A stretch of 64,000 nucleotides of DNA from an uncultured Bacteroidales bacterium (lineage in GTDB: Bacteria > Bacteroidota > Bacteroidia > Bacteroidales > M50B96): assembly GCA_964388245.1 (NCBI GenBank), contig CAYLZH010000001.1:774-64773 (forward strand). Direction: 5' to 3'. Position 1 is the stretch's first letter. The number at the start of each line of letters is the position of its first letter. A program made the position numbers and the translations under genes. Of the stretch, positions 1 through 48,636 are shown piece by piece. A model generated the notes under the pieces. That model had not been told where the DNA came from and did not search any database. It was given only the letters and a program-made list of their open reading frames with translations.

Positions 1-1271
1 GGGCCTGTACCTGTTCCAGCGCCTCCTGCTACACAAGCCGATAATCCTCCGGTGAGTGTGCCAACAACTAATCCGTTATTATTGAATATGGGTGATCCGG
101 ATGAGCCTCCTTCTGTAACACCAGCACCGTTTGCAGTTGAAGTCCATTTTACTGCCCAGTGCGTGTTACCCGAAGAATTTACCAGTGCATTAGTATAGGT
201 TGAAATCTTTTTCACATCACCGGCAGGATGGTGAATTCCGACACCACTTGTCGATGAGGCATTGATGGTTCTCCATCCATTAAAAAACACATCATATTCA
301 ATTGGAATATAGGAGTTAAATAGCACCAGATAGAAATCGGATCCTGACCAACCTCCCCGGGCTTTCTTAGTAGCACCGGTCATTGTATTTGAAGCAGGTT
401 CTGGTTCGTTTGAATCGTTGCAGTTTTGGCGTTCGTAATTAAAATAGAATACCCAAACAAGTAAATCTTCAAAACTTGTTCCATCGGCACAATGATCGGC
501 GGTTAAGAAATAAGGTAAACAATCCTGATCGGTATTATTTACCAACGAACCTGAACACCAGCCAAAACCAGTTCCATGTTTTACTGATATCCTCGCTACT
601 CCCCGTTGTTGATCGCGCCAGTTATTTCCTTCGGAGCAAACTGCATCGACCTCGCAATCCTGTGAGGTTTCATACGTACCTCCTCTCGAGAATCCGGGAC
701 CATAAACTGAACGATAGGCATATGCAATTTCTGATATCTCAATAATAGGTTCCTGATAAACATCTGATGGCTGAAAATATTCTAAAATTACTGTCTCGCC
801 ATAAATTAACTCATTAGCAAATTTTCCACTTGGATGATTATTGATATAGGTAAAGGCGCCAATTACCTGCTCCTTATTTCCTCCATATAAGTACAATTCA
901 CAGCCTTCAGGAATCCAGAAATCACTGTAGTAAACTCCAATTGCAAGAGCTTCTTCGGCATGGATTACAAGTCGCCAAATTCGATCGCCATTTGCAAGCT
1001 GAGTCCAGGTTCCGGCTGAGTTAATTGAAAACCCAGCTTTCTGCGATACACCATATCGGTATAGTTCACCATCAGCATCACGAATTTCGTCTTCAGCTTG
1101 TACTTCTTTAATATTTATCTTTGGAAACTCTTTTACCTCAATTTTGTCATCGAGTTTTAATTCAAAACTCTTAGGTATACCACCAACACTTATTTGTCCA
1201 TTTAATGGATTGCTAATGAACAAAAATGCCGAGATTATCAATATACTCAGCAGACTCAAACTTCTTCTCAT
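1..1271 (-). CDS. Secreted S1-family (chymotrypsin-fold, lysyl/glutamyl-endopeptidase-like) serine protease; N-terminal part only, C-terminus lies beyond the left edge
   Basis: The reverse strand reads ATG at 1271..1269 and gives MRRSLSLLSILIISAFLFISNPLNGQ (signal peptide). The frame stays open to position 1. It contains LTADHC (catalytic His motif) and GGSSGSPIF (catalytic Ser motif). It is missing from the ORF track because no stop codon falls inside the window. Confidence 0.75.
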   Translation of the reverse strand, partial: MRRSLSLLSILIISAFLFISNPLNGQISVGGIPKSFELKLDDKIEVKEFPKINIKEVQAEDEIRDADGELYRYGVSQKAGFSINSAGTWTQLANGDRIWRLVIHAEEALAIGVYYSDFWIPEGCELYLYGGNKEQVIGAFTYINNHPSGKFANELIYGETVILEYFQPSDVYQEPIIEISEIAYAYRSVYGPGFSRGGTYETSQDCEVDAVCSEGNNWRDQQRGVARISVKHGTGFGWCSGSLVNNTDQDCLPYFLTADHCADGTSFEDLLVWVFYFNYERQNCNDSNEPEPASNTMTGATKKARGGWSGSDFYLVLFNSYIPIEYDVFFNGWRTINASSTSGVGIHHPAGDVKKISTYTNALVNSSGNTHWAVKWTSTANGAGVTEGGSSGSPIFNNNGLVVGTLTGGLSACVAGGAGTGTG

Positions 1272-1642
1272 ATTCAGTAATTTCAGATTTTGTACAAAAT
1301 AAAACGCCAAAACTATAATTAATAAATGATAGTTTATACTGTCAAATATCATCAATAGATACACAGTAAACATATTGAAGTACAAATGGTTTCATCTGGC
1401 ATGAATATCAGATGAAAATCTACCATAAATTGCTATATATTCTACTGATATCATGTTAGTTAAATAGATAAACCTGTTGATATTTAAAATTTTGTTATTT
1501 TTTTGCTAAAAAACTTGTCAGTCTCATGTATTTTGTTGTATATTTGAATCATCAAATTTGAAACGTTCTTTTTTATAGAATAAAAATATCACTTTAAGCC
1601 TTCATGGTTTAAATTGTGATGGGGAAAGGTTAATTGAAGGGC

Positions 1643-1677
1643 AAGGCTGTCGAATTTTCGGCAGCCTTTTCTTTTTT
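1643..1677 (+). terminator. Strong intrinsic-terminator-like hairpin with no upstream plus-strand ORF
   Basis: aaggctgtcga/tcggcagcctt forms an 11-bp stem (one G-U pair) with an auuu loop, followed by ttcttttttcc. The U-tract exists only on the plus strand. Confidence 0.5.
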
Positions 1678-1711
1678 CCTATACCTGTAAGAATAAATCT
1701 AAACTAATTAC

Positions 1712-1741
1712 ACAAAAAGGCCGGTTGAACCATTAACCGGC
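1712..1741 (-). terminator. Intrinsic terminator downstream of the PorV/PorQ-like gene
   Basis: gccggtt (1720-1726) pairs with aaccggc (1735-1741). On the minus strand the hairpin is followed by CTTTTTGTG. It lies about 25 nt after the stop at 1766. Confidence 0.55.
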
Positions 1742-1765
1742 TTCAATATTTAAAGTGAGTTTTGT

Positions 1766-2824
1766 TTAATTCCAGAAGTATCGAAGGGAAAAAACGTTTG
1801 AGTATTCTGCAATTGATTGATCGCCGACATCGGTAAATGCATAATCAAGTGCAAAAGATTTTAACTGTAGCCCAAATCCAATGGTAGGCTGAAACGACCA
1901 TGCCTTTTCGTCAAATTCCATTACCTCCTGAAAATTGCCGACACCACATCTTACAAACATGAATTTCTTATATCCCAGTTCCATTCCCATATGAGGATCG
2001 ATTGAAACCAGATTGCTGCTTACAACTGTATGTTTTTCACCGTCGAAAGTCAGGTCGGCATCGAGTTCAACATGCAAATCAAAATTTTTATTCAATGTGA
2101 AATTCCTTCCTGTGCCTAAAAGAAGCTTCGGTAATGTTGCTTCAATCGCACTGGATGATATGGTATTAAACGTTGAGTCGAGAACAGTGACTGCCAATTT
2201 ATCATTATTAAAACTCCAGGCGTTAAACGTACTTGTTGCATCGCGTAGCACAATTCCATAACTCCATTTGTTCTTATGGAACTGAGCCCCTATATCGAAA
2301 CCAAATCCCCATGCCTTGGCAAATTCTCCGACAATCCGGTGAATTATTTTCACATTTGCTCCATACTGCAAGTTTGGATTTTTAGCTTTTTGCGCATACG
2401 AAAATAGAATTCCATAATCAGCAACAGAAAACTTCTTGATCCTGTCGTAATCGAGATTTCCTTCGCTATCGAAAATTTCCAGGGTGTTTTTGATATCATC
2501 AACCCCAAACCGGAGTAGCGTCAGTCCCACAATTCTTTGGTCATCAATTCGATAACTGGCTCCGGCGTAATCATATTTTGCCATTCCTGCAAAATACTCG
2601 GTATGCATCAGGCTAAGTCCATAATTATTACTGATACTGACCAATCCGGCCGGATTCCAGTATCCTGATGATACATCACAAACACTTGCTACAACCGAGT
2701 TGCCCATTGCCAATGCGGGTGCACCTACACCGTTCGACATAAATTCGTTACTATAAATCCTTTGGGCCACAGTCGATTGCCATAGAAAGCATGCTAAAAA
2801 TATTATTCCAATTTGCTTGTGCAT
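1766..2824 (-). CDS. PorV/PorQ-family outer-membrane beta-barrel protein (T9SS-associated, FadL-like)
   Basis: Has a signal peptide (MHKQIGIIFLACFLWQSTVAQ). The motif GVGAPALAMGNSVVASV...GYWNPAGL is typical of this family. Alternating beta-strand pattern with an aromatic C-terminus (...LRYFWN). Confidence 0.6.
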   Translation of the reverse strand: MHKQIGIIFLACFLWQSTVAQRIYSNEFMSNGVGAPALAMGNSVVASVCDVSSGYWNPAGLVSISNNYGLSLMHTEYFAGMAKYDYAGASYRIDDQRIVGLTLLRFGVDDIKNTLEIFDSEGNLDYDRIKKFSVADYGILFSYAQKAKNPNLQYGANVKIIHRIVGEFAKAWGFGFDIGAQFHKNKWSYGIVLRDATSTFNAWSFNNDKLAVTVLDSTFNTISSSAIEATLPKLLLGTGRNFTLNKNFDLHVELDADLTFDGEKHTVVSSNLVSIDPHMGMELGYKKFMFVRCGVGNFQEVMEFDEKAWSFQPTIGFGLQLKSFALDYAFTDVGDQSIAEYSNVFSLRYFWN

Positions 2825-2943
2825 ATTATTCCTTATCAGAAAAACTAAGTTATTAACTAAATAAGAATATTTTTATTGTCGCATTGATAAACAATAAGAG
2901 AGGCCTGGTAAAATATAATCCGGGCAAAATCATCATCTTAAAA

Positions 2944-3969
2944 TCAGGAATAAGCATCGAGGCATTCTTCGAAAAAGATATCATGCTCGATGGGTACAAC
3001 TCCTACTTTCTCGCAAACCAGACCACCAGCAATATTTGCGATAGCAGCAATATTATCAGGCTCTACACCAGAAGCAAGACAAAGACAAGCTACTGCAATA
3101 ACAGTATCGCCGGCACCAGACACATCTGCGATATCGCGAATTTCGGCCGGCAGGGAATGATACTTCTTATTATCACTGATTAAAACACCTGCTTCAGAAA
3201 GTGTTACCATTACATATTTCAGGTTCATATTTTTGTGCAATACTTTGGTCGCTTCAAATATTCCCTGTAAATCGAATTTGTTCAAATCAAGTTTTAAGCC
3301 TTCTACCAACTCTTTAAAATTTGGTTTAAACAAAGTAGCATTTTTGAAATGGTTAAAATTCCTTTTTTTCGGATCGACAAGTATCGGGATATCCATTGAA
3401 TTAGCTCTGTCAATAACTTCTTCAATTATAACCGGAGTAATATTTCCTTTATCGTAATCCTGAAAAATAATTGCATCAATTTTGTCATGATCCAGAATTT
3501 TGTTTATTACATCAATCAGTTGATGCTCGGCTTCTTCGGGCAAACGACCGGTTACTTCTTCATCAACCCTTAATAAATGCTGATTACTACTGATTACCCT
3601 GGTTTTGACAGTAGTAATTCGCTGTTCTGATTGAATAATGCCGGTACTGGTGAGTTTCTGGTTTTTCATCAATTCAAGAAACTCGGCTCCCATATTATCC
3701 TGTCCAATAACCGAACATAAGACAGGTTCTGCCCCAAGCGACATGAGATTAAGACCAACATTGGCAGCTCCACCCAACCTGTTTTCTTTGTGAGTAATGG
3801 CAACGATTGGGATGGGTGCTTCGGGCGAGATTCTGTCTACATTACCCCACATATAAGAATCGATCATAACATCGCCAATTACCATTACTTTCTTTTTATT
3901 GAAAGAATTAAATAGTTTTCTTACTGCGTTTTTATCCACTATTACTGATTTTGTTTTAATCCACGGCAA
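2944..3969 (-). CDS. D-glycero-beta-D-manno-heptose-7-phosphate kinase-like PfkB sugar kinase (RfaE/HldE domain I only)
   Basis: VMVIGDVMIDSYMWGNVDRISPEAPIPIV...RLGGAANV and a C-terminal DVSGAGDTVIAV match the ribokinase/PfkB fold and the RfaE kinase-domain pattern. At 341 aa there is no adenylyltransferase domain. Confidence 0.8.
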   Translation of the reverse strand: MPWIKTKSVIVDKNAVRKLFNSFNKKKVMVIGDVMIDSYMWGNVDRISPEAPIPIVAITHKENRLGGAANVGLNLMSLGAEPVLCSVIGQDNMGAEFLELMKNQKLTSTGIIQSEQRITTVKTRVISSNQHLLRVDEEVTGRLPEEAEHQLIDVINKILDHDKIDAIIFQDYDKGNITPVIIEEVIDRANSMDIPILVDPKKRNFNHFKNATLFKPNFKELVEGLKLDLNKFDLQGIFEATKVLHKNMNLKYVMVTLSEAGVLISDNKKYHSLPAEIRDIADVSGAGDTVIAVACLCLASGVEPDNIAAIANIAGGLVCEKVGVVPIEHDIFFEECLDAYS

Positions 3970-36437: not shown

Positions 36438-37538
36438 ATGAATACTGATTCTCTACTCCTTCAACCAATCCAATTAGGACCATACGAATTGTCAAACCGT
36501 GTTGTAATGGCACCATTAACCAGGCGAAGGGCAGGAGCTGGCAATGCTCCAACTGCAATGAATGCTGAATATTATGCACAGCGGGCGAGTGCAGGACTTA
36601 TAATCGCAGAAGGAAGTCCTATCTCGCAACAAGCAACGGGCTATCCCGATGTCCCCGGTATATATACACAAAAGCAAATCGATGGATGGAAGCTTATTAC
36701 TAAAGAAGTCCATAAACATGAAGGCAGGATATTCCTTCAGCTATGGCATGTAGGGAGATTCTCGCATAACGATTTTCAACCAAACGGGAAACTACCTGTT
36801 GCACCATCAGCAATACCTTACCGGGGAAGAAAAATTAATACCGGGGAAAATGGGCATCAGGAAGTACCGGTTCCTCATCCGCTTAGTAAGGACGAGATAA
36901 AGTCGATAATAGGTGATTATTGGCAGGCTGCCAAAAATGCCTTGGAGGCCGGCTTCGATGGTGTTGAGCTTCATGCAGCTAATGGTTATCTTATCGATCA
37001 GTTCTTAAATGACATATCTAATAAAAGGACCGATGAGTATGGAGGAAGTTTCGGCAACAGGTACAGATTTTTAGCTCAGGTAACAGATGCTTTATGCTCG
37101 GTTTGGGGAAGCAAAAGGGTTGGTGTCAGGCTTTCGCCCGGAGGAGGAAGCCTGGGGATGCGCGATAACGATCCTCTTGGTCTGTTTTCATATGTTGTCT
37201 CAAGATTGAATGACCTTAATCTTGGGTATTTGAGCATACTTGAACAACTTGGGGAAGTTGAAAACTATCCGGCCGAAATTCAGAATCTTACACCGTATTT
37301 CAGAAAATTTTACGATGGACTTCTGATAACTAATCACGGTTTCGATTTTAATAAGGCAAATAAAATAATAGAAGAAGGCAATTCCGACATGGTTGCATTT
37401 GGTAAATGGTATATATCGAATCCAGATTTGGTTGAGCGTTTCGCTGTCGGTGCTCCGATTGCCGAACCAGACACGAAAACCTATTATGGTGGCAACGAGC
37501 ATGGGTACACTGATTATCCATTCATGGTAAAAGAATAG
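36438..37538 (+). CDS. Old Yellow Enzyme family NADH:flavin oxidoreductase / alkene reductase (NemA-like)
   Basis: Contains OYE signatures VMAPLTR, LWHVGR, GFDGVELHAANGYLIDQFL and SNPDLVERF. Confidence 0.9.
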   Translation: MNTDSLLLQPIQLGPYELSNRVVMAPLTRRRAGAGNAPTAMNAEYYAQRASAGLIIAEGSPISQQATGYPDVPGIYTQKQIDGWKLITKEVHKHEGRIFLQLWHVGRFSHNDFQPNGKLPVAPSAIPYRGRKINTGENGHQEVPVPHPLSKDEIKSIIGDYWQAAKNALEAGFDGVELHAANGYLIDQFLNDISNKRTDEYGGSFGNRYRFLAQVTDALCSVWGSKRVGVRLSPGGGSLGMRDNDPLGLFSYVVSRLNDLNLGYLSILEQLGEVENYPAEIQNLTPYFRKFYDGLLITNHGFDFNKANKIIEEGNSDMVAFGKWYISNPDLVERFAVGAPIAEPDTKTYYGGNEHGYTDYPFMVKE

Positions 37539-37794
37539 GATTTTTTTCAACAATCCGATCCTTTTAAACAAATTTACTCTTGTAAAGGTTCTTTTGTAAT
37601 ATTGAGTTCATCTCGTGTAACATTTATCCTCTTAACCAGTCTTTGAGAGCAAATTCCAAAACTATGCTCTACAACAGGATAAGATATTACTTTTCAATAC
37701 AAAAACTTCTTACTTTTAACTCCAATAAGACTTTCTGCTTTTCAGGAAAAAAGGATCAATCAGAAGGAAGTAACACCAACAAATACCATTTGCT

Positions 37795-38481
37795 ATGAAA
37801 GAACTGTTTGAAGCTTCATTTTCGGCCATTAACATAATCCCTACTGTATTACTGGTACTATCTCTCATTTATTGGCTCATAGTTATCTTTGGCATTTTCG
37901 ATCTCGATACCGTGGATCTTGATGTGGAGGCGGACGTTGATATTGATGTAGATGTAGAAGCAGACATTGACCTTGATGCCGATGCAGACCTTGATGCTGA
38001 TAGTGAAATAAGCGTAAGTGGTTCGGTTCTGTGGCTCAACTCAGTGTTATCGTTTTTCAATATTGGTCGTGTACCAGTTATGATTGTCGTTAGTTTCTTT
38101 TCTCTTTCACTTTGGATTATTTCCGTAATGCTGAATCATTGGCTGAGTAATACATCTTTTCTGATTTCTTTTATACTTCTTATACCAAATATGGTGGCAA
38201 GTTTATTTGTGGCCAAAATCATTACTATTCCGTTTGTTAAGGTTTTTAAGAAGGCCAACGAAATTCAAAACAATACAGGTTTGGAAGGTAAAATCTGCAA
38301 AGTGACCATTCCGGCCAGCCACGATAGGATGGGGCAGGCACTGATCCGAATTAATGGAGATACTTTTAATGTAAATATAAAAACCCAACCTGACGTTTCA
38401 CTGCAAGTAGGAGAGCAGGCGCTGGTAATCGAATATCAAAAAGACAATAAAATATATATAGTTGAACCTTATAAAGAATAA
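37795..38481 (+). CDS. YqiJ/DUF1449-like inner-membrane protein with C-terminal NfeD-like OB-fold domain
   Basis: An N-terminal TM helix is followed by an acidic tract (DLDTVDLDVEADVDIDVDVEADIDLDADADLDADSE) and further TM helices. The C-terminus is a beta-rich soluble domain (GLEGKICKVTIPASHDRMGQALIRINGDTFNVNIK...ALVIEY). Its stop lies 2 nt before the flotillin ATG. Confidence 0.7.
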   Translation: MKELFEASFSAINIIPTVLLVLSLIYWLIVIFGIFDLDTVDLDVEADVDIDVDVEADIDLDADADLDADSEISVSGSVLWLNSVLSFFNIGRVPVMIVVSFFSLSLWIISVMLNHWLSNTSFLISFILLIPNMVASLFVAKIITIPFVKVFKKANEIQNNTGLEGKICKVTIPASHDRMGQALIRINGDTFNVNIKTQPDVSLQVGEQALVIEYQKDNKIYIVEPYKE

Positions 38482-38483
38482 TC

Positions 38484-40619
38484 ATGGGAGCAAATGTAAT
38501 AGCTACTTCAACAGTATTACTGGTGATATTTTTTATCGCCATCGTGATACTCGTAATTAAAACCTACAAAAAGGCCGTCCAGGGCCAGGCCATTGTCCGA
38601 ACAGGCTCGGGTGGCACAAAAGTTTCCTTCAGTGGATTTTTTGTAATTCCCGTTCTGCACAAAATGGAAGTGATGGACATTACCATCAAAACAATCGTGA
38701 TTTCACGATTAGGGGTCGATGGGTTGATCTGTAAAGACAATATGCGGGCTGATATCAAGGTGTCGTTCTTTGTGCGGGTAAACAAAACCGTCGAGGATGT
38801 AATCCAGGTGGCACAAACGATCGGTTGCTACCGGGCTTCTTTCCAGGAATCGCTGGAAAATCTTTTCGATGCCAAATTCTCCGAGGCATTGAAAACCGTC
38901 GGTAAGCAGTTCGATTTTGTGGAGTTGTACAATTCGCGTGTGAAATTCAAAGAAGAGATTCTTCACACCATTGGCACAGACCTCAATGGCTATGTGCTCG
39001 ACGATTGTGCCATCGACTATCTCGAACAAACTCCTCTCGAAACTTTAAAAAGTGGTAATATTCTCGATGCTGAGGGTATAAAGAAAATTACCCAGCTTAC
39101 CGCCGAACAGATAGTGCTTGCCAACCAAATTGAACGCGACAAAGAAAAGACGATCAAGAAGCAGGACGTGGAAGCCCGGGAAACTATTCTTGAACTTGAA
39201 AAGCAACTGGCCGAAAAAGAGGAACAGCAAAAGCGCGAGATAGCATCGGCTGTAGCTCGTGAAGAAGCTGCCACTAAAAAAATTCAGGAAGAGCAACGAC
39301 AATTATCAGAGCAGGCCCGTATTGCTGCCGAAGAAGAAATCCAGATTGCCGAGCAGAATAAAGAGCGTCAGGTGATTGTGGCTGAGAAGAACAAGGAAAA
39401 GACCGAGGCCATCGAAACCGAGGCAGTACTGAAAGACAAGGAATTGGAAATTACCGAGCGCGAAAAAATCGTTACCCTGGCACAGATCGCAAAAGAGAAA
39501 TCGGTTGAGGAAGAAAAGAAAAACATCCAGGATGTGATCAAGCAGCGTGTAATGGTTGAAAAGGCAGTGGTTGAAGAAGAAGAAAAGATCAAGGATACCA
39601 AAGCTTTTGCCGGAGCAGAACGTGAGAAATCGGTTGCCATAAAATTGGCAGAAAAAGATGCTGAGGAAGGTTTGGTGAAAGAAATTAAAGCTGCTGAGGC
39701 TGATAAAACTGCTTCCGTTTTCAAAGCAGAACAAAAGCAGATTGAAGCAGAAGCTCAAAAACAAGCTTCATCGAAAGAAGCAGATGCGATAAAAATTATG
39801 GCCGAAGCAAAAGCTGCACAGGAGGCTGCCATTGGAATGGCTGAAGCACAGGTGATTGAGGCCAAAGCTGAAGCCAATCAAAAACAAGGTGAAGCCGAAG
39901 CTAATGTAATAGAGATGAAAGCAGTTGCCGAGGCTAAAGGAATAGAGGTTACCTCGGAGGCTGAAGCCGGAGCCACAAAGAAAATTGGTGTATCAGAAGC
40001 GGAGGTTATTAGTGCTAAAGCTGTTGCCGAAGAAGAAAAAGGTATGGCCGAAAATCGTGTGGCTCAAGAAAACTTTACCGTTGAGGCCAAGGGTATTGAA
40101 GAAAAAGCAGGAGCCATGAAGAAACTCGATGGTGTGGGCAAAGAGCACGAAGAATTCAAAATCCAGATTCAGAAAGAAAAAGATATCGAACTAGCCGAAA
40201 TCAATATTCAGAAAGATATCGCCGAGGCTCAGGCCAAAGTTATTGCCGAAGCCCTCAAAGCTGCTAATATCGATATCGTAGGCGGTGAAACCATGTTCTT
40301 TGAGCAAATAATGGGCGCCATCACCAAAGGTAAAAAAGTTGACCGTACTGTTGACAACAGCCATGTGTTAGCCGATTTAAAAGAACAGTTCTTCAACTCA
40401 GAAGGAGGCAAATCCTTCAAGGAAAATTTCCGTCACTTCATCGATCAGTTTGGCGTAAGTTCTGAAGACTTGAAAAACCTGAGCCTTTCGAATCTGCTAC
40501 TAAAGTTAAGCACAGAAGCTGATTCCGCTGAAGATAAAAGTATGTTCAGTGGTTTGCTCAACTCGGTAAGCTCTTTGGGACTGGCTGATAAAACTGCAAA
40601 AGAAATAGGTTTGGAATAA
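38484..40619 (+). CDS. Flotillin-family SPFH/Band-7 protein (YqiK-like) with long E/A/K-rich coiled coil
   Basis: An N-terminal TM helix (VLLVIFFIAIVILVI) is followed by an SPFH-like domain (QAIVRTGSGG..., MDITIKTIV..., ADIKVSFFVRV). About 350 aa of AEAEA/KEKE coiled coil follows, then a flotillin-type C-terminus. Confidence 0.85.
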   Translation: MGANVIATSTVLLVIFFIAIVILVIKTYKKAVQGQAIVRTGSGGTKVSFSGFFVIPVLHKMEVMDITIKTIVISRLGVDGLICKDNMRADIKVSFFVRVNKTVEDVIQVAQTIGCYRASFQESLENLFDAKFSEALKTVGKQFDFVELYNSRVKFKEEILHTIGTDLNGYVLDDCAIDYLEQTPLETLKSGNILDAEGIKKITQLTAEQIVLANQIERDKEKTIKKQDVEARETILELEKQLAEKEEQQKREIASAVAREEAATKKIQEEQRQLSEQARIAAEEEIQIAEQNKERQVIVAEKNKEKTEAIETEAVLKDKELEITEREKIVTLAQIAKEKSVEEEKKNIQDVIKQRVMVEKAVVEEEEKIKDTKAFAGAEREKSVAIKLAEKDAEEGLVKEIKAAEADKTASVFKAEQKQIEAEAQKQASSKEADAIKIMAEAKAAQEAAIGMAEAQVIEAKAEANQKQGEAEANVIEMKAVAEAKGIEVTSEAEAGATKKIGVSEAEVISAKAVAEEEKGMAENRVAQENFTVEAKGIEEKAGAMKKLDGVGKEHEEFKIQIQKEKDIELAEINIQKDIAEAQAKVIAEALKAANIDIVGGETMFFEQIMGAITKGKKVDRTVDNSHVLADLKEQFFNSEGGKSFKENFRHFIDQFGVSSEDLKNLSLSNLLLKLSTEADSAEDKSMFSGLLNSVSSLGLADKTAKEIGLE

Positions 40620-40626
40620 TTTGTAA

Positions 40627-40798
40627 ACGCAGAGACACAGAGACGCAGAGGAATTGTTAGTGTCCTCTGTGTCTCTATCGTGCAACTTCGTGATAAAACT
40701 ATTTCACTCTGTTTCACAAAGAACCACAGAGTTTCAAAAAGAAATATGAATCAATTCAAAGTATTAAAGTCCTTCTCTGCACCTCTGTATCTCTACGT
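40627..40798. mobile_element. MITE-like 172-bp element with ~24-bp terminal inverted repeats made of (A/G)CNCAGAG units
   Basis: The left end is acgcagagacacagagacgcagag (from 40627). The reverse complement of the right end (40798 back to 40775) is acgtagagatacagaggtgcagag, 20/24 identical by my hand alignment. TA flanks both ends. An internal 14-bp hairpin joins 40639-40652 and 40663-40676. Confidence 0.5.
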
Positions 40799-40812
40799 TA
40801 AAACAATAAACA

Positions 40813-43800
40813 ATGTCGTTGGAAGAAAAAAATAACATACAGGAAGCAATGAGTTCGGGTGTAGGACTCGAACAGGGAACTTATGAGATAATCCGAAACC
40901 GTTTGCTGGCCCAGGGCAAGGACTTGTACACCCGTCTTGGTAAGCTGAACGAAGAGCGCAAGCGTGTGTTTGGGGCTGTGGCAACCCAGCTATTGGCAAC
41001 CGAGCGCGTTACGACCGATAACAACTGCGTGCCGGTCGACATGTTCGCCTTCGACCATTCCTTCCTCTTTGGCTATAATGTGCTGATAGGCTTGAAAAAG
41101 GAGGTGGATATCTCGGATGTGTTCTCAATCTATGAGTATAGTGACCAAAACTTTCACCAGAAGGATTTGACTGTTTTGAGGGATGAAGAATTTCTGAAAG
41201 ATTTCAAAAATCTATACAAATATTACAAAGACACCAGGTTTCGAAAGTTTGCTTATATCGATTCGCACCTCTACATGGTGTTCCGTACAGGCAAGGGCAT
41301 GGCCGATGTCAAAACCTTTAAATGGCTGGTGGATGGTACAACGCTGGTTTATATTGACAACCGTAGCGACCATGAATATACCTACCCCAACCAACATGAG
41401 TTCGACTGGAAAAAGACCACACGTGATCAACAGCAAAAGGGGCAACACCCACATATTTCCATCGAAGATGAGGTATTTGTAGAAACCACCGAGGGTGACC
41501 TTACAATTAAAATTGAAAACAATACCGACACTGGGCAGGGAATTTTTGAGGAAGAGGTAGAACATAAAACCCAAACCCTCGACGATGCCGAAATCTATTA
41601 TGCCATCATCGACTCGTTGGTGGTGCTTAAAATAAAGCCTTACCATGAAGAAGATTTTCGCTACATCGTATATAACCAAAAGGTGAAGCAGGCCCACCGC
41701 ATCGACTCGCTGGAGGATAGCTGTGTGCTGTTGCCCGACGACCACGGGATTATCTTTGCCAATGGCTATTATTTACAAACAGGCGAGCTTAAGGTTTTCG
41801 ACCAGCAAATAGACGATATGTTGTTCGAAACCCGTATTGCTGCACCAAATGGAGAGGATTTTCTCTATGTCTTCTTCAATAAATCGACAGGAACTTACAT
41901 TCTTCTGTCGTACAATTTGATCGACCAAAAGGTGGACAAACCCATCGTTTGCCATGGTTATTCCATTTTCGATAATGGCGAATTGTGCTATTTCAAATCC
42001 GATGATGATCCAAAAAAACACCACGCCCTCCAGATTTGGCAAACGCCTTATTTAAGCCCCAATTATCAGCCTCCTGTGCAAAACGAAAGTTTTCTGTACA
42101 AGATCGGCAACAAGGATATTGTGAAGGGGATGGCCGAATGTAATGAGGTGCAGAACCTGATAATCAAGGACGAGACTTATGCCAATCTTTATTTCGATAT
42201 CCTGAAAAAGGCCACTGATGTGCTCGATTCCTATTATTGGATCGACAAGGAGGAATGTTTCCGTTTGGATGAACCATTGGCCGGCATAAAGGAAGCTTCG
42301 TCGATGGCTATTGGCGAGTACGAGAAAGTGGTGCAGATCAGGCAGTCGACACAAAAAGAATTCAACCGTGTTGTGGGCTTGTTTGATGAACTGAACCATT
42401 CCATCTTGGCTTCATCGCTCAAAGAGATTAACGATTTTGTAAACTTCCTTTCGGAGATCCGAAAGTTGCGGGGTGAGATTATTTCATTGAAAGACCTGCG
42501 CTATGTCGATCTGGATGCCGTGCAAAAGTACGAATCGCAGATGGTGGAACGCAACGAAAACCTGTCGATGGCTTGTGTTGAATTCCTTTTGAAAGAGGAA
42601 GCCCTGAACCCCTACCGCGAAAAAGTTGAGGCTGTGAACGACCGGGTTTCGGAAGTTGGCAAGGTGGTAGATGCTGATGAATTGGACGAGGAACTGGCCG
42701 CTATTGCCACCGAGTTGGAGATGCTCATCGAGATAGTGGGCAACCTGAAAATCCACGATGCCACTGAAACCACTCGCATCATCGATAATATCTCGGGCAT
42801 TTACGCCGAGTTTAATCTAAGTAAGGCGGCACTAAAAAATTGTAAGCGCGATCTGTTGGCCGTGGAAGGCAAGGCCGAGTTCAACTCGAAAATAAAACTC
42901 ATCCGCCAGGGCATTGTCAATTACATCGACCTGGCCGACTCGCCCGAAAAATGCGACGACTACCTGGCCAAGATAATGGTGCAGTTGGAAGAGTTGGAGG
43001 GAAAGTTCTCGGAGTTTCCCGAGTTTCTCGAAAAGCTGGCCACCGAGCGCGAGGAGAGCTACAATTCCTTTGAGTCGAAGAAAGTGAACCTGGTCGAAGA
43101 GCGCAACCGAAAGACTAATGCACTGTTCGCATCTGCGGAGCGCATTCTAAAGTCGATTGGCAACAAGGCATTTCAATATAAATCAACCAGCGAGATAAAC
43201 GGCTATTTTGCTTCCGATCCGATGATCGAAAAATTACGCTCGATCGTAGAGCAATTGATCGAGATGGAGGACAGCGTAAAGGCTGATGATATTCAAAGTC
43301 AGTTAAAAAGCATCCGCGAAGAATCCGTCCGTCAGTTAAAAGACAAGTCGGAGCTCTTCTTGCAGGGCGACAATGTGATCAGTTTTGGTCAGCACCATTT
43401 CCTGGTCAACACCCAACAATTGGGACTAACGATGGTGTACCGCAACAAGGAAATGTTCTATCACCTTACAGGAACAAACTTTTTCGAGACCGTTCAGGAC
43501 GAAGGTTTTGCTGCTACTCGTTTAGTTTGGGAACAAAGCCTGGTTTCGGAAAATCAAGATGTGTATCGGGGCGAGTACCTGGCATACAAAATATTCCAGA
43601 CAGCTAACTCGAACGAAGAAAACAGTGGTGGCCAAGGTGTCACCCTCAGTCAGTTAAAAGAATTTACGGATGAGGAGTTGATCGAATTTATTCGCAGATT
43701 CATGGCCACCCGCTACAACGAAGGCTATTTGAAAGGCGTACACGATGCGGATGCCGGAATCATTCTCCGATCTTTATTGAATATTCATTCGCATGCTGGA

Positions 43801-45735
43801 CTATTGCGATATGCAAGCCAAACCCGTGCTGCTGCCCAGTTCTTCTGGCAGGTAGGACTTCCGCAAAACGAAAAGCAAAACATAGTAAACAAACTGAATG
43901 GGGTTGGGGCTATTTTGGCCGTATTCCCTGACAGCAAAGAATTCCGATATATTGTGGATGGATTGGTAGAGAAAAATCATGAATATTCTCTACATCAGAA
44001 TATATTCCCTAACCTGAACATTGAAGGTGCCGCCAATTACCTTTTCGAAGAATTGATAGAGGACGAATCCTTTGTGATTGCGCCCGAGGCCTATCAACTG
44101 TTTGAATCCTTCCAGAAGTTCCTTTTTGAAAAAAAGGCGCGAAAACAATTTGCTGAATCCTTGGCAGCAGTTGAAGAACATTCTGAAACACGCTATAAGT
44201 TGATCTGCAATTGGGTGAATTCCTTCTTGCAACAATACAAATTGAAGAACCTGTTTCCGTATGCCTACGAGGTGGCCATGCTTATTTTCAATGGCACCCC
44301 AAACAAGGCGAAGGTTGTGGAAGTGTCGATCCATGAAGAGTTGAATGGCTTAAGTGGTTCGCACAGCATGATTGAGGAGGGCAAGCTCGAACTGCGCTAT
44401 GATAGTTTTATGCAATGCTTGTCTGATTACGAAAACACGGTAGTTAAGCAGTTCGGTCAGTTCGAGGGATTGAAAAAATCCCTGCTGAAAAACTATGAAT
44501 ACGAATTGCGATTGAACGAGTTTAAGCCTCGCATCCTGTCCTCCTTTGTTAGAAACCAGTTGATTAATGAAGTCTATCTACCTATTGTTGGTAGTAATCT
44601 AGCCAAGCAAATCGGTACGGCTGGCGAAAGCAAACGAACCGACCTGATGGGGCTTCTCCTTTTGATCTCTCCTCCGGGATATGGTAAAACCACTCTGATG
44701 GAATACATCGCCAATCGTCTCGGCATTATCTTTATGAAGGTGAACGGCCCGGCTCTTGGGCATAAAGTGGTATCGCTCGACCCGGCCGAGGCCAACAATG
44801 CGAGTGCCCGCGAAGAACTTGAAAAGCTCAACCTGGCCTTCGAGATGGGCGACAATGTGATGATTTACTTAGACGATATCCAGCACTGTAATCCTGAGCT
44901 TTTACAAAAGTTTATCAGCCTCTGCGATGCCCAACGAAAGATAGAGGGTGTGTATAAAGGCCGTGCCAAGACCTACGATTTCAAGGGTAAGAAAGTCTGT
45001 GTGGTAATGGCGGGAAATCCTTACACCGAGAGTGGCGAGAAATTCCAAATCCCGGATATGTTGGCCAACCGTGCCGACATTTACAACCTAGGGGATATTA
45101 TTGGCGACACCGAGGATGCCTTCAAGCAAAGCTATATCGAGAATGCCGTTACCTCCAACCTTGTGCTGGGCAAACTGGCAGCCAAAAGTGCCAAGGATAT
45201 TTATCCGCTCATCCGTTTAGCTGAAACGGGCAACAAGGAAGGATTGGAGTTCGAGGCTGATCATTCCCCTGCCGAATTGGGCGATTATGTCGAAATTCTG
45301 AAAAAGCTCTTTGCTGTTCGCGATGTCATCTATCGGGTAAACAAGGAGTACATTGCCTCGGCGGCCCAGTCGGACGAATTCCGAACAGAGCCAGCTTTCA
45401 AGCTCCAGGGCTCGTACCGCAACATGAACAAGATAGCCGAAAAGGTAGTGGCCGTGATGAACGACAAAGAATTGCAGACCCTTATCGAAGCCCACTACGA
45501 AAGCGAATCGCAAACATTAAGCAAGGACAGCGAGGCCAACATGCTCAAGTTCCGCGAGCTCATTGGCAAGCAAAGCAAAAAGGACAGCCTTCGATGGAAC
45601 GAAATCAAAGACACCTTCATGGAACACCAAAAAAGCAAGATGTACGGTGGCGATGCCGTTGGCCGTGTAGTAGCCGAAATGCAAAGCCTAAACCTGGGCT
45701 TGGAAGGTATTGCGAAGGTGATTGGGGGGAGGTAA
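40813..45735 (+). CDS. 1640-aa soluble protein of unknown function with a single C-terminal AAA+ ATPase core
   Basis: One long uninterrupted ORF. Walker A is PPGYGKTT (aa 1287-1294, nt 44671-44694). Walker B is VMIYLDD (aa 1349-1355, nt 44857-44877). VVMAGNP is sensor-1-like and LANRADIY is a possible Arg finger. I see no signal peptide or TM helix. The N-terminal ~420 aa are beta-rich and the central ~800 aa helical. Confidence 0.8.
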   Translation: MSLEEKNNIQEAMSSGVGLEQGTYEIIRNRLLAQGKDLYTRLGKLNEERKRVFGAVATQLLATERVTTDNNCVPVDMFAFDHSFLFGYNVLIGLKKEVDISDVFSIYEYSDQNFHQKDLTVLRDEEFLKDFKNLYKYYKDTRFRKFAYIDSHLYMVFRTGKGMADVKTFKWLVDGTTLVYIDNRSDHEYTYPNQHEFDWKKTTRDQQQKGQHPHISIEDEVFVETTEGDLTIKIENNTDTGQGIFEEEVEHKTQTLDDAEIYYAIIDSLVVLKIKPYHEEDFRYIVYNQKVKQAHRIDSLEDSCVLLPDDHGIIFANGYYLQTGELKVFDQQIDDMLFETRIAAPNGEDFLYVFFNKSTGTYILLSYNLIDQKVDKPIVCHGYSIFDNGELCYFKSDDDPKKHHALQIWQTPYLSPNYQPPVQNESFLYKIGNKDIVKGMAECNEVQNLIIKDETYANLYFDILKKATDVLDSYYWIDKEECFRLDEPLAGIKEASSMAIGEYEKVVQIRQSTQKEFNRVVGLFDELNHSILASSLKEINDFVNFLSEIRKLRGEIISLKDLRYVDLDAVQKYESQMVERNENLSMACVEFLLKEEALNPYREKVEAVNDRVSEVGKVVDADELDEELAAIATELEMLIEIVGNLKIHDATETTRIIDNISGIYAEFNLSKAALKNCKRDLLAVEGKAEFNSKIKLIRQGIVNYIDLADSPEKCDDYLAKIMVQLEELEGKFSEFPEFLEKLATEREESYNSFESKKVNLVEERNRKTNALFASAERILKSIGNKAFQYKSTSEINGYFASDPMIEKLRSIVEQLIEMEDSVKADDIQSQLKSIREESVRQLKDKSELFLQGDNVISFGQHHFLVNTQQLGLTMVYRNKEMFYHLTGTNFFETVQDEGFAATRLVWEQSLVSENQDVYRGEYLAYKIFQTANSNEENSGGQGVTLSQLKEFTDEELIEFIRRFMATRYNEGYLKGVHDADAGIILRSLLNIHSHAGLLRYASQTRAAAQFFWQVGLPQNEKQNIVNKLNGVGAILAVFPDSKEFRYIVDGLVEKNHEYSLHQNIFPNLNIEGAANYLFEELIEDESFVIAPEAYQLFESFQKFLFEKKARKQFAESLAAVEEHSETRYKLICNWVNSFLQQYKLKNLFPYAYEVAMLIFNGTPNKAKVVEVSIHEELNGLSGSHSMIEEGKLELRYDSFMQCLSDYENTVVKQFGQFEGLKKSLLKNYEYELRLNEFKPRILSSFVRNQLINEVYLPIVGSNLAKQIGTAGESKRTDLMGLLLLISPPGYGKTTLMEYIANRLGIIFMKVNGPALGHKVVSLDPAEANNASAREELEKLNLAFEMGDNVMIYLDDIQHCNPELLQKFISLCDAQRKIEGVYKGRAKTYDFKGKKVCVVMAGNPYTESGEKFQIPDMLANRADIYNLGDIIGDTEDAFKQSYIENAVTSNLVLGKLAAKSAKDIYPLIRLAETGNKEGLEFEADHSPAELGDYVEILKKLFAVRDVIYRVNKEYIASAAQSDEFRTEPAFKLQGSYRNMNKIAEKVVAVMNDKELQTLIEAHYESESQTLSKDSEANMLKFRELIGKQSKKDSLRWNEIKDTFMEHQKSKMYGGDAVGRVVAEMQSLNLGLEGIAKVIGGR

Positions 45736-45767
45736 GTCACGGATTGTAATTGGTGCCAAGATTTGAC

Positions 45768-45804
45768 AAAACCACGAGTGAGGAAATTCGCGGCAACACG
45801 GGGA
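45768..45804 (+). repeat. Hairpin repeat copy R1
   Basis: aaaccacgagtgaggaaattcgcggcaacacggggag aligns without gaps over 34 nt with R2 and with the reverse complement of R3. Confidence 0.6.
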
Positions 45805-45878
45805 GATTACAGGAATGAATTGTATATATGATTGGATTGAAGTAAATTTGAAGAAGATTTATCAAATGAGTGTGAAAT

Positions 45879-46205
45879 ATGAAATTGCCATCAAAAGCAG
45901 TAATTGCAGATGAAAAGATCAAAGCATATCTTTTATCCTATCGTAGAAGAAATGATAAATCTAAATGGCTTGAAAGAGCGGGCTATAACCAGGAAAACTG
46001 GAGTATCTTAAAAGTGGACATACAGGATCAGCTTCTTCCTTTGGATGCTGTTCCTGTAGAAGAGAATGAATACGGACAGATGTACAAGTTAATTGGCAGA
46101 CTTACTGGCCCAAACGGTAAGACCTTATTGGCATGTACAATTTGGATGGTGGAAAATGAAACGAAGTTACTTAAGTTTATCACGATGTTCCCATTTAAAA
46201 ATTGA
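45879..46205 (+). CDS. DUF6883-like small protein (first gene of a putative two-gene toxin-antitoxin-like cassette)
   Basis: At 108 aa it shows the pattern KI.AYLLS....KSK.....GY...NW..L........YGQMYKLIGRLTGPNGKTL...T.W, which matches my recollection of DUF6883. The next gene starts 6 nt after its stop. Confidence 0.6.
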   Translation: MKLPSKAVIADEKIKAYLLSYRRRNDKSKWLERAGYNQENWSILKVDIQDQLLPLDAVPVEENEYGQMYKLIGRLTGPNGKTLLACTIWMVENETKLLKFITMFPFKN

Positions 46206-46211
46206 ATTGAT

Positions 46212-46454
46212 ATGAAATATGAATTATACAAGGAAGTAGTCTTACTAAAAGACATTCCTGAAAAAAAATTAAAAAAGGGAGATGTTGCAACTATTGTGGA
46301 ATACCATCCATCAAAAACATCCAGCGATGGATATACCTTGGAGGTATTCAATACAATTGGAGATACGATAGCGGTATTGTCAGTGTCCGAAGCAGAAATC
46401 GAAACATTAAAGAAAAGTGAGGTCTTTAGTGTACGTCCTTTAGAAGTGGCATAA
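46212..46454 (+). CDS. DUF4926-like small protein (second gene of the cassette)
   Basis: At 80 aa, MKYELYKEVVLLKDIPEKKLKKGDVATIVEY....DGYTLEVF...GDTIAVLSV matches the DUF4926 SH3-like pattern as I recall it. Confidence 0.65.
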   Translation: MKYELYKEVVLLKDIPEKKLKKGDVATIVEYHPSKTSSDGYTLEVFNTIGDTIAVLSVSEAEIETLKKSEVFSVRPLEVA

Positions 46455-46494
46455 TATCTTTTTTCAACACTGCACCATGGATCCTTTCATTGAT

Positions 46495-46530
46495 AAACCA
46501 CGAGTGAGAACACTCGCGGCAGCGCGGGGG
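46495..46530 (+). repeat. Hairpin repeat copy R2, abutting the duplicated gene fragment
   Basis: In aaaccacgagtgagaacactcgcggcagcgcggggg the arms ccacgagtg and cactcgcgg pair at 8 of 9 positions. Its last base is the first base of the 210-nt duplicate. Confidence 0.65.
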
Positions 46531-46739
46531 ACAGCGAGACCAATATACTTAAGTTCCGCGAGCTCATCGGCAAGCAGACAGAAAAGGACAGCCTACGCTG
46601 GAACGAAATAAAAGACACCTTTATGCAACACCAAAAAAGCAAAATGTACGGCGGCGATGCTGTTGGAAGAGTTGTTGCAGAAATGGAAAGTTTAAATGTA
46701 GGGTTGGAAGGTATTGCAAAAGTGATTGGGGGGAGGTAG
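46530..46739 (+). pseudogene. Orphan diverged copy of the last 69 codons plus stop of the 1640-aa AAA+ gene
   Basis: It aligns without gaps to 45526..45735. By my hand count 177/210 nt and 62/69 aa are identical, with the stop at the same position. Of 29 differing sense codons, 22 are synonymous. No in-frame start codon lies at its 5' end, and an in-frame TAA lies at 46494-46496. Confidence 0.85.
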
Positions 46740-46859
46740 AAGTTAGATAAAGGCATGAATTACAAATTCGGGCCTTGGGGGGAGGAAGGAATGACATAAA
46801 TGTGATAGTAGTCTGCTGAGAATGCAATTATATTCGCACAATATAAAATTGGAATTTAT

Positions 46860-47426
46860 ATGAAAAATGCGTTTGTCATTGTTACATTTTGGTTAGCAAG
46901 CTATTCATCTTTTGGACATCCTTTGATATTACGAAGCCTTGTCTTTTCCTATGTTTCAGAAATAGGCAATGAGAAATTAATCAACTCTTATCAACTTGAT
47001 TTGGTAAGCGAGTGTGTGTTTTATTGTACCTACCATGTATATTATTCAATTGGTGCTAATTGCAAATACTCTGACAATTTTAAATCTATTGGAATGTCTT
47101 ATACAGCTGTACCCAGATTCTTTAATGGATTTGGGTCAGGTTGGAACTCAAATTACGAACCTCTATTAAGTATAAAATCCTCTGTAATAATTGATAAAGT
47201 AGATAAATCAATATCACTATCTTCTGATTTTGGAGTTGGTGCTATTGCTTTTTACGAAATAAAAAATGTACATGTATATGTAAAATTATTATACAACTAC
47301 CAGTTACCTGCTAAATCATATTTAAGGATGAATCAGCATTTTATTTCGTTCTCAGTAGGATCAAATTTTGGTTTTGTCCTCGACCACAGACATGGGTTTA
47401 GACACCGTTTTTTATTTAGACATTGA
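46860..47426 (+). CDS. Hypothetical protein (possible small secreted or outer-membrane protein)
   Basis: A 188-aa ORF in very AT-rich DNA. The N-terminus is hydrophobic (MKNAFVIVTFWLASYSSFG) and aromatic/Gly-rich segments alternate. No motif is recognisable. Confidence 0.35.
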   Translation: MKNAFVIVTFWLASYSSFGHPLILRSLVFSYVSEIGNEKLINSYQLDLVSECVFYCTYHVYYSIGANCKYSDNFKSIGMSYTAVPRFFNGFGSGWNSNYEPLLSIKSSVIIDKVDKSISLSSDFGVGAIAFYEIKNVHVYVKLLYNYQLPAKSYLRMNQHFISFSVGSNFGFVLDHRHGFRHRFLFRH

Positions 47427-47448
47427 TCTATCTCCAGGGCAGTTTTGT

Positions 47449-47487
47449 CCCCCATGCTGCCGCGCGTGTCCTCACGCGTGGTTCGGG
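47449..47487 (-). repeat. Hairpin repeat copy R3 (inverted orientation)
   Basis: The reverse complement is cccgaaccacgcgtgaggacacgcgcggcagcatggggg. The stem arms ccacgcgtg and cacgcgcgg carry a compensatory A-T to C-G change relative to R2. Confidence 0.6.
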
Positions 47488-47490
47488 AAA

Positions 47491-47522
47491 GTTACACGAA
47501 GTGCTACACAAAGTTGCACGAA
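47491..47522 (+). repeat. CACGAAG/CACAAAG heptamer-type repeat block
   Basis: The block gttacacgaagtgctacacaaagttgcacgaa contains cacaaagttgcacga. This matches the reverse complement of 40679-40694 (cacgaagttgcacga) at 14/15 positions. Confidence 0.55.
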
Positions 47523-47580: not shown

Positions 47581-48636
47581 TCACTTGCCGGCCATGTCCT
47601 TTCCATAAGTAAGGGTGATTTTGCGGGTTATTTTGCCATCGCCTTTTATTGATTTGAATTCAGTGAGGAGCTCTTCATCATAGGTATATTTCTGTTGCCA
47701 GGTTTGCTTCCCCTTTTTGAATCCGGTTCGGGATAAGACTAATTCTCCATCATAGGTGTACAGATATTTATACTTTTCCCTGCCTTTTTTATTATAGCCT
47801 ATCGATGTAAGTTGTTTGCTGTAACTTCCATCGAATGTAGATTCCCAAAGAAGTCGGTCGTTGCCATCGTAACTTTTTCGTTCAACAATTGAAGTGTCAG
47901 CAGCATTATACTTTGTTACATATTTCCTGATGTGCCCTTTTTCATCGAACGATTGATATACCTTAATCAAGTAATCCTTCGATGACTCGTCCCATTGGCA
48001 AACCTGGGTTTCGTTTTTACGCTTCTCGAGAACTTCACCCTCACTCTTGCATTCATACGACCATATCTTCTTTACTTTCCCACGGCGATTATATAAGGTA
48101 GTCCGTTTAAGCTCATCCTTTTTAAAATATTCATATGCCCACTTGTGAGAAATTTTCCCGTCCGAATCAAACCAGGTATAGGTTGCTAATGTACTATCAG
48201 GATTATATACCCATTCTTGGTGATGAACGACCATACCTTTCGAATTGATTTTCTTTTTCTCCCCAATCTTACCGATAGCATTATACTTCATCAATATGGT
48301 TTGATTGAGCTTTTCTTTTTTATACTTTTTAGCCTCCACAACACGTCCGTCTTCATTATATTGAAACTCGAACATGGGTTTGCTTACACCATCTTTGTTG
48401 AATTTTGATAAACAGATCAACGATCCATTATCGTTATATTCTTTAGTGTATCGCTTTATTTTCCCACGTTTAAGTACTACCTTGAAATTGATTTGGTCAA
48501 CCAGAGTAGTTGGTTCATATGCCAGGGGAGTATGTTTCGATTGGGAAAACTCCCAACCTAAGGTGTAATTGCATTGGGCAAAAGAATTAGTTACTATCAA
48601 CACAATGCTAATATGAAATAGGAATACACTTTTCAT
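47581..48636 (-). CDS. Secreted protein built from YD-like repeats (paralogue of 15936..16784)
   Basis: Has a signal peptide (MKSVFLFHISIVLIVTNSFAQ). Repeated Y-N/D-x-x-G motifs are present (YNDNGSL, YNEDGRVV, FDSDGKI, FDEKGHI, YDGNDRLL, YTYDGELV). Confidence 0.55.
   Translation of the reverse strand: MKSVFLFHISIVLIVTNSFAQCNYTLGWEFSQSKHTPLAYEPTTLVDQINFKVVLKRGKIKRYTKEYNDNGSLICLSKFNKDGVSKPMFEFQYNEDGRVVEAKKYKKEKLNQTILMKYNAIGKIGEKKKINSKGMVVHHQEWVYNPDSTLATYTWFDSDGKISHKWAYEYFKKDELKRTTLYNRRGKVKKIWSYECKSEGEVLEKRKNETQVCQWDESSKDYLIKVYQSFDEKGHIRKYVTKYNAADTSIVERKSYDGNDRLLWESTFDGSYSKQLTSIGYNKKGREKYKYLYTYDGELVLSRTGFKKGKQTWQQKYTYDEELLTEFKSIKGDGKITRKITLTYGKDMAGK

Follow-up and report, generated by a model that had tools for sequence, protein, structure and literature searches.

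What is the function of a soluble bacterial protein of 1640 residues that carries a single AAA+ ATPase module at its far C-terminus? The question is raised by a locus in a 64,000-nucleotide stretch of DNA from an uncultured Bacteroidales bacterium (positions 774 to 64,773 of contig CAYLZH010000001.1, assembly GCA_964388245.1), here called the window, in which a giant gene encodes such a protein. Databases call it a 'DNA repair ATPase', a label for which no support was found, and the original prediction, made from the letters alone, saw in it a protein of unusual layout. The strongest functional clue, absent from that prediction, is a conserved pair of upstream genes encoding a flotillin and an NfeD-like membrane protein. 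Because the giant gene almost always follows this pair, a job at the membrane is favored over DNA repair, and we put at about one half the probability that the giant protein is a cytoplasmic AAA+ motor whose function is tied to a flotillin/NfeD membrane scaffold.

Genetic linkage to a flotillin/NfeD pair

The first gene of the triad (Table 1) encodes a YqiJ/NfeD-like protein with three hydrophobic segments, a linker of acidic D-x-D repeats and a C-terminal soluble domain. A 29-sequence profile of this family aligned with Escherichia coli YqiJ (hhalign, 93%, E 3e-7), and weak matches were obtained to Pfam YqiJ_N and, in a PDB profile search, to the Bacillus subtilis NfeD protein YuaF. Its stop codon lies 2 nucleotides ahead of the second gene, which encodes a flotillin composed of one N-terminal transmembrane segment (residues 1-33), an SPFH domain and a coiled coil rich in E and A residues. 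The profile of this flotillin aligned with E. coli YqiK (hhalign, 99.95%, E 8.8e-38, 32% identity over 394 columns). No Pfam family, Band_7 included, matched the flotillin of the window, and Band_7 was matched by only one of the 29 members of its family (E 2.7e-8). The membrane anchor, the SPFH domain, the coiled coil and the NfeD-type gene directly upstream together assign the protein to the flotillins of the SPFH2 type. The pairing of NfeD2 with SPFH2 is the one treated by Hinderhofer et al. (2009; PMC2636767). The yqiJ-yqiK operon of E. coli and the yuaF-floT operon of B. subtilis contain homologues of both upstream genes in the same order, but they carry no giant ATPase gene downstream, and the flotillin of the window is longer than that of these known operons (711 vs. 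553 residues).

At least five phyla retain the order NfeD-like gene, flotillin gene, giant ATPase gene. Linkage in relatives was assessed by tblastn at 81 related loci obtained from a scan of species-representative genomes, 74 of which extend 2 kb or more upstream. Of these 74 Bacteroidota loci, 71 have a flotillin gene ahead of the giant gene on the same strand and 68 have an NfeD-like gene as well, the gap between the two usually measuring 1-20 nucleotides. Across Bacteroidota orders, identity ranges from 57 to 89% for the flotillin and from 51 to 78% for the ATPase. More distant carriers were found by tblastn in plasmid records and mis-filed chromosome records; the same order was recovered, at 33-45% flotillin identity, in Pseudomonas (plasmid pQBR103), Proteus mirabilis, Vibrio campbellii, Streptomyces, Nonomuraea and Deinococcus grandis. 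RefSeq annotates the last two genes as 'SPFH domain-containing protein' then 'DNA repair ATPase' on pQBR103, and as 'flotillin family protein' then 'DNA repair ATPase' on the Streptomyces plasmid.

On pQBR103 (L083, 1-12238; L numbers designate related loci), the triad stands directly after a PspA/IM30 cluster, with all genes on the same strand. Besides PspA/IM30 itself, this cluster comprises genes for a rhomboid protease, DUF2491, DUF350 and DUF1190 proteins and a glutathionylspermidine-synthase-like gene. The PspA/IM30 neighbors provide a membrane-stress context.

A widespread family of giant ATPases

The giant gene is one open reading frame from ATG to stop; its length in DNA of 38-46% G+C rules out a chance origin, and thousands of full-length homologues back it. 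The peptides quoted in the original prediction, FLYVFFNKSTGTYILLSYNLIDQKVDKPIVCHGYSIFDNGELCYF (residues 350-394), VVMAGNP and NRAD, are all found in its translation. A hydrophobicity scan detected no transmembrane segment in the protein (highest 19-residue hydropathy 1.15), in contrast with both of its partners, which have such segments.

A homologue search returned more than 5285 proteins, of which the best 120 were examined for length and domains. These are mostly 1630-1670 residues long (range 1578-1848), with the Pfam domains of the giant protein, and their alignments span 95-100% of the query. Distant members are colinear over 98-100% of the length. Searched alone, the propeller described below yielded 523 clusters at 50% identity (E ≤ 1e-10), in which it is always N-terminal, complete proteins measuring 1600-1930 residues. 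The layout that had been deemed unusual, namely DUF3686 followed by DUF7902 and AAA, is thus the norm of the family. Within this widespread, uncharacterized bacterial family the giant protein is in no way exceptional, and its layout is no discovery.

The closest relative (78% identity) is encoded in a Bacteroidales metagenome-assembled genome (L001). Other DUF3686/DUF7902 proteins align end to end with the window protein at 33-78% identity and differ from it in nothing essential. WP_011922896.1, from plasmid pQBR103 of Pseudomonas fluorescens SBW25, shares its domain order, length, catalytic residues and upstream flotillin gene. A local difference between the window protein and other members is its apparently exchanged 3′ end, accompanied downstream by the remnant of an earlier allele.

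Homologues are named 'DNA repair ATPase', 'AAA family ATPase' or 'hypothetical' in their sources. Our literature searches found no paper on DUF3686, PF12458 or the family, nor on DUF7902, and none joining 'DNA repair ATPase' with flotillin or NfeD. The 'DNA repair' name most likely mirrors a faint likeness to RuvB.

The G+C content at third codon positions (GC3) reaches 0.57 in the giant gene, compared with 0.30-0.44 in the flanking genes. Recent horizontal transfer was considered as the cause and dropped, since the L001 orthologue has the same bias (0.60), which therefore seems intrinsic to the gene itself.

Domain organization

The protein was modeled with AlphaFold2 in two halves, each from a 56-sequence alignment and each with a mean predicted local distance difference test (pLDDT) score of 81. 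From the N- to the C-terminus, the models contain a disordered start, a long helix (residues 21-53), a beta-propeller, long helices, a small beta domain, a second helical domain, two long linker helices, the AAA+ alpha/beta core, and finally a helical lid and tail. The beta-rich N-terminal sensor anticipated in the original prediction, either a propeller or a sandwich, is resolved as a beta-propeller by AlphaFold2 and Foldseek, and the middle of the protein (residues ~430-1250) consists mainly of long helices, as had been anticipated as well. For the N-terminal half, Foldseek retrieved only generic six- or seven-bladed propellers (E ~1e-5), those of CyRPA, PON1 (paraoxonase), prolyl-oligopeptidase and the clathrin terminal domain.

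The regions preceding the AAA+ module had been described as unassigned. Parts of them are in fact covered by Pfam DUF3686 (residues 37-475; 623.9 bits against a cut-off of 25, E 1.6e-187, profile positions 1-448 of 448) and DUF7902 (92.5 bits against 26), both of which are still domains of unknown function. Pfam AAA scored 31.9 bits against a cut-off of 21.2, and residues ~1270-1407 gave weak generic matches to AAA, AAA_5, AAA_22 and RuvB_N. In a Pfam search of four sub-segments at E ≤ 10, residues ~850-1240 and 1440-1640 matched no family, which leaves the small beta domain and the second helical domain without a Pfam match. A second, degenerate AAA+ domain in residues 900-1230 was also considered and rejected, as the AlphaFold2 model is all-helical there.

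The residues of the small beta domain that do not vary across phyla are G859, F863, V865, N866, Q868, L872, G887 and T888. The second helical domain displays the motif G975-x-H977-D978-x-D980 (G-V-H-D-x-D-A, residues 975-981, positions 43735-43755), which is invariant or near-invariant across at least five phyla and could act in metal binding or as an interface.

Conservation is by far the highest in the AAA+ core, with a mean pairwise identity of 75% compared with 49% for the propeller and 32-46% for the helical regions. At the other extreme, the last 35 residues are the least conserved part family-wide (24% mean identity, no invariant residue); the tail residues invariant across the family are R1594, W1595 and only a few others, all in its first half. 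The ~190-residue helical tail of the original prediction is indeed helical; it is not a separate appendage, its first ~120 residues forming the AAA+ lid with the sensor-2 motif GSYR1536.

Classification of the AAA+ module

All five AAA+ motifs are present, in an alpha/beta core that leads into a helical lid, which places the module in the AAA+ superfamily. Twelve sequences representing Bacteroidota, Planctomycetota, Pseudomonadota, Actinomycetota and Deinococcota were aligned, and all of them share the Walker A lysine K1292 (GYGK1292T), the Walker B pair D1354-D1355, the sensor-1 asparagine N1402, the arginine finger R1420 (NRAD) and the sensor-2 arginine R1536 (GSYRNMNK). The single AAA+ module first read from the sensor-1 asparagine and NRAD is therefore borne out in at least five phyla, and the AlphaFold2 model of the P-loop region has AAA+ topology.

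Foldseek matched the core with a probability of 1.00 to NorQ, RuvB, MCM and Lon, which together with CbbQ are its top PDB matches (E ~1e-6, 12-17% identity). When the profile of the family's AAA+ region was aligned by hhalign with E. coli representatives, mainly over the stretch from Walker A to Walker B, RuvB ranked first (95%, E 1.8e-8), followed by ClpX (90%, E 1.3e-6), Lon (85%, E 6.2e-6), DnaA (40%, E 3e-4) and the MoxR protein RavA (12%, E 2.3e-3). In the predicted model, a beta-hairpin (residues 1376-1389) located between helix 3 and the sensor-1 strand (strand 4) corresponds to a pre-sensor-1 hairpin, and strand 2 is joined to helix 2 by only a short helix and a loop, with no helix-2 beta-hairpin. 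Given the hhalign ranking and this pre-sensor-1 hairpin without a helix-2 hairpin, the modeled module would probably fit nearest to the HslU/ClpX-Lon-RuvB (HCLR) group.

The module belongs to no named AAA+ family. Its RuvB scores fall below the thresholds for membership (RuvB_N, 23 bits against 27; NF000868, 23.4 against 282; TIGR00635, 20.1 against 299), and no ruvA-like gene is found among its neighbors. A search of PDB sequences with the family profile returned nothing at E ≤ 0.001; with the single protein, it returned only p97/Cdc48, over ~60 residues around Walker A. NCBIfam and PHROGs provided generic P-loop matches only. The classical AAA clade (p97/FtsH/Vps4) was rejected because of the pre-sensor-1 hairpin in the model and the lack of an aromatic residue in the pore-loop region; the PF00004 match covers only profile positions 1-109 of 131. 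RuvB, ClpX and Lon have in common with the window ATPase the AAA+ core, a pre-sensor-1 hairpin that is predicted in the window ATPase, sensor-1, the arginine finger and sensor-2. The window ATPase differs from them in being only 12-17% identical, in scoring below every family cut-off, in its DD Walker B, in having no aromatic pore loop, protease domain or RuvA partner, and in the ~1275 residues of unrelated domains that precede its core. The Walker B motif is D-D rather than D-E throughout the family (44872-44877, residues 1354-1355). DnaA likewise has DD in Walker B and hydrolyzes ATP slowly, a parallel that serves here only as a lead.

A proposed flotillin-coupled motor and its alternatives

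How could the giant protein act as a motor on a flotillin/NfeD scaffold? First, the flotillin and NfeD proteins would form a membrane-attached scaffold or cage. Second, the giant protein, probably a ring oligomer since its invariant arginine finger is trans-acting, would dock on the cytoplasmic side of this scaffold through its propeller and helical stalk. Finally, ATP would drive the remodeling of the scaffold, or the extraction or unfolding of its clients, by analogy with HflK/C-FtsH. The pairing would then resemble that of HflK/C with FtsH, an SPFH scaffold and a AAA+ machine, minus the protease domain. HflK/C with FtsH is an established SPFH/AAA+ pairing (PMC13220708). As in the window triad, an SPFH-family scaffold is there genetically paired with a AAA+ ATPase; the triad differs in combining a YqiK/FloT-type (SPFH2) flotillin with an NfeD2-type protein, and in having a soluble ATPase that belongs to another AAA+ group and is devoid of a protease domain. 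More tentatively, and at distinctly lower odds than the coupling itself, the triad might constitute an undescribed and ancient membrane machine, in which a flotillin cage is served by a dedicated hexameric RuvB/ClpX-like motor, borne on a propeller-and-stalk arm, that assembles, opens or empties the cage.

Several observations weigh against a motor coupled to flotillin. The case for a physical interaction is drawn from gene order, and two loci (L021 and L057) carry the giant gene with no flotillin gene within 10 kb upstream. The spacer between the flotillin and ATPase genes varies from 59 to 3060 nucleotides in related loci and often holds unrelated genes, so that co-transcription of the triad is not required. 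E. coli YqiJK functions without a giant ATPase partner. As for the enzyme, the DD Walker B may result in slow, switch-like or regulated ATP hydrolysis, and the largely invariant loop between strand 2 and helix 2 (NGPALGH-x-V) contains no aromatic residue, although this is the loop in which the aromatic pore residue of protein-threading AAA+ motors sits.

The alternative that survives best, which we nonetheless consider unlikely, is that the triad serves as an anti-phage or conflict system, in which flotillin/NfeD would sense membrane perturbation during infection and the ATPase would be the sensor or the effector. Copies of the triad do reside on plasmids and megaplasmids in several phyla, and defence-like cassettes adjoin it, with DUF6883 and DUF4926 in the window, and AAA_15/AAA_21 and DUF3226, with RloB further downstream, in L001. 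Synteny between the window and this closest relative is limited to the triad, and large ATPases bearing propellers are common in conflict systems (PMC7159879). The high GC3 of the giant gene relative to its neighbors could be counted on the same side, but L001 shares it, as expected of a gene property. PADLOC-DB 2.0 returned a specific hit for none of the three proteins: the ATPase gave generic P-loop matches only (mad8, E 2.9e-4; IetA, E 4.6e-3), and the flotillin-like and NfeD-like proteins gave no hit. Moreover, no effector domain is recognizable, conservation is high and even, unlike that of fast-diversifying sensors, and other neighbors in the window are housekeeping genes (DnaJ, ABC transporter, thiolase, oxidoreductase). 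Within the literature on flotillin in anti-phage defence, no paper on the DUF3686 family was found.

Improbable, and ranked below a conflict system, is the activity implied by the names 'DNA repair ATPase' and 'ATPase involved in DNA repair' given by NCBI and Pfam, that of a DNA repair or DNA-translocating ATPase working as a RuvB-like hexameric motor on DNA. RuvB is indeed the nearest profile match in hhalign, RuvB_N and the RuvB models of NCBIfam match weakly, Foldseek places RuvB and MCM among its best matches, and a pore-loop region devoid of aromatic residues would suit such a motor. Against this, the RuvB scores lie far under their cut-offs and concern the Walker A-Walker B stretch only, ClpX, Lon and NorQ match about equally well, Pfam scans of all 1640 residues detected no nuclease, helicase or DNA-binding domain, the conserved neighbors encode membrane proteins instead of repair functions, and the literature searches found no paper on DUF3686 or PF12458 to sustain the name. 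Lastly, the STAND-like or MoxR-like regulated switch ATPase evoked by the original prediction is very improbable: the core scores just over the Pfam AAA_5 cut-off (26.3 bits against 22), its top Foldseek matches include NorQ and CbbQ, both MoxR proteins, and a large repeat-type domain is present, at the N-terminus whereas STAND proteins bear theirs C-terminally, but RavA reaches only 12% in hhalign where RuvB reaches 95%, the model has no helix-2 beta-hairpin insert, no VWA partner gene occurs in the window or in related loci, STAND models of Pfam touch only the P-loop and stay under their cut-offs (E 0.03-0.08; nSTAND, 0.035-0.056), and the arginine finger and sensor-2 arginine are invariant in their AAA+ positions.

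Variable sites around the giant gene

The last 210 nucleotides of the giant gene (45525-45734) recur 1004 nucleotides downstream with 85% nucleotide identity. This downstream copy is what remains of an earlier or foreign allele, and its reading frame is intact, with 63 of 70 codons identical between the copies. They differ at 33 nucleotides and at 7 of 69 residues, with a ratio of nonsynonymous to synonymous substitution rates (dN/dS) of 0.05 and a dS of ~1.1, so they diverged inside functional genes of different lineages. The constraint on the tail proposed in the original prediction consequently holds between these two alleles, as purifying selection; it does not hold across the family, whose last 35 residues are the poorly conserved segment noted above.

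A 35-nucleotide repeat is present in two copies in the window, where none would be expected by chance. The cassette of two genes, DUF6883 and DUF4926, which we take to be toxin-antitoxin-like, has a GC3 of 0.30-0.37 compared with 0.57 in the giant gene. Replacement of the allele together with acquisition of the cassette, or site-specific insertion, are candidate mechanisms for the arrangement at 45525-46738. The same arrangement is found in L001 (14863-16777) with another cassette, made of an AAA_15/AAA_21 ATPase and a DUF3226 protein; there the tail remnant is shorter, frameshifted and near-identical to the functional tail of L001 itself. Loci L003-L081 showed no tail remnant. In the lineage of the window and L001, the 3′ end of the giant gene may be a recurrent cassette slot.

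The spacer between the flotillin and ATPase genes constitutes a second variable slot, exemplified by L003 (8681-9844) and also by L006, L011, L019, L041, L044, L063 and L067. Its contents include a DUF3800 protein, small endonuclease-like proteins, lipoproteins, a CPBP-like membrane protein and an ABC transporter. In the window, the spacer contains a CAGAGACACAGAG / CCTCTGTGTCTCT-type motif in imperfect inverted and direct copies. Rfam (E ≤ 1) gave no match over 37000-47500, this motif included, and a scan for sigma-70 promoters and terminators, a type of scan unsuited to Bacteroidota, remained at chance level. Further downstream, an open reading frame of 351 residues on the reverse strand (47581-48636) encodes a protein with a signal-like N-terminus and many short repeats of the K-Y-x-x-x-G type, for which Pfam gave no significant match.

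Table 1. Features of the giant ATPase locus, in window coordinates with residue numbers of the giant protein in brackets
Feature	Position	Strand	Description
YqiJ/NfeD-like membrane protein	37795..38481	+	228 residues; hydrophobicity scan and profile match
YqiK-like flotillin (SPFH2 type)	38484..40619	+	711 residues; hhalign to YqiK
Spacer between flotillin gene and giant gene	40620..40812		193 nucleotides, read directly
Giant ATPase	40813..45735	+	1640 residues, soluble; DUF3686 + DUF7902 + AAA; database name 'DNA repair ATPase'
Beta-propeller	40987..42042 (59-410)	+	about seven four-stranded blades; AlphaFold2 pLDDT mostly 80-90; core of DUF3686
Long-helix region	42091..43356 (427-848)	+	AlphaFold2; helices of up to 58 residues
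DUF7902	42598..42849 (596-679)	+	inside the long-helix region; Pfam E 2e-26
Small conserved beta domain	43375..43491 (855-893)	+	AlphaFold2 strands
Second helical domain	43501..44292 (897-1160)	+	AlphaFold2
AAA+ alpha/beta core	44638..45162 (1276-1450)	+	AlphaFold2 model, Foldseek, invariant motifs
AAA+ helical lid with insertion	45163..45525 (1451-1571)	+	sensor-2 in GSYR1536NMNK
C-terminal tail	45526..45735 (1572-1640)	+	two helices, then a low-confidence end; duplicated part
35-nucleotide repeat, copy 1	45769..45803	+	AAACCACGAGTGAG...CGGGG; 33 nucleotides past the stop codon
Two-gene cassette	45879..46454	+	DUF6883 (108 residues, Pfam E 2e-18) and DUF4926 (80 residues, E 3.8e-14)
35-nucleotide repeat, copy 2	46495..46529	+	abuts the remnant tail
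Remnant of another allele's 3′ end	46529..46738	+	69 codons and stop, in frame; without start codon or upstream gene body

Concluding remarks

The unsupported name 'DNA repair ATPase' is attached to thousands of ATPases of ~1640 residues and is spreading through genome records. If the giant protein is indeed a motor coupled to flotillin and NfeD, this annotation would be corrected, bacterial flotillins, whose function is still debated, would gain a defined enzymatic partner, and a conserved, ATP-driven partner of this kind would offer a direct experimental handle on them.

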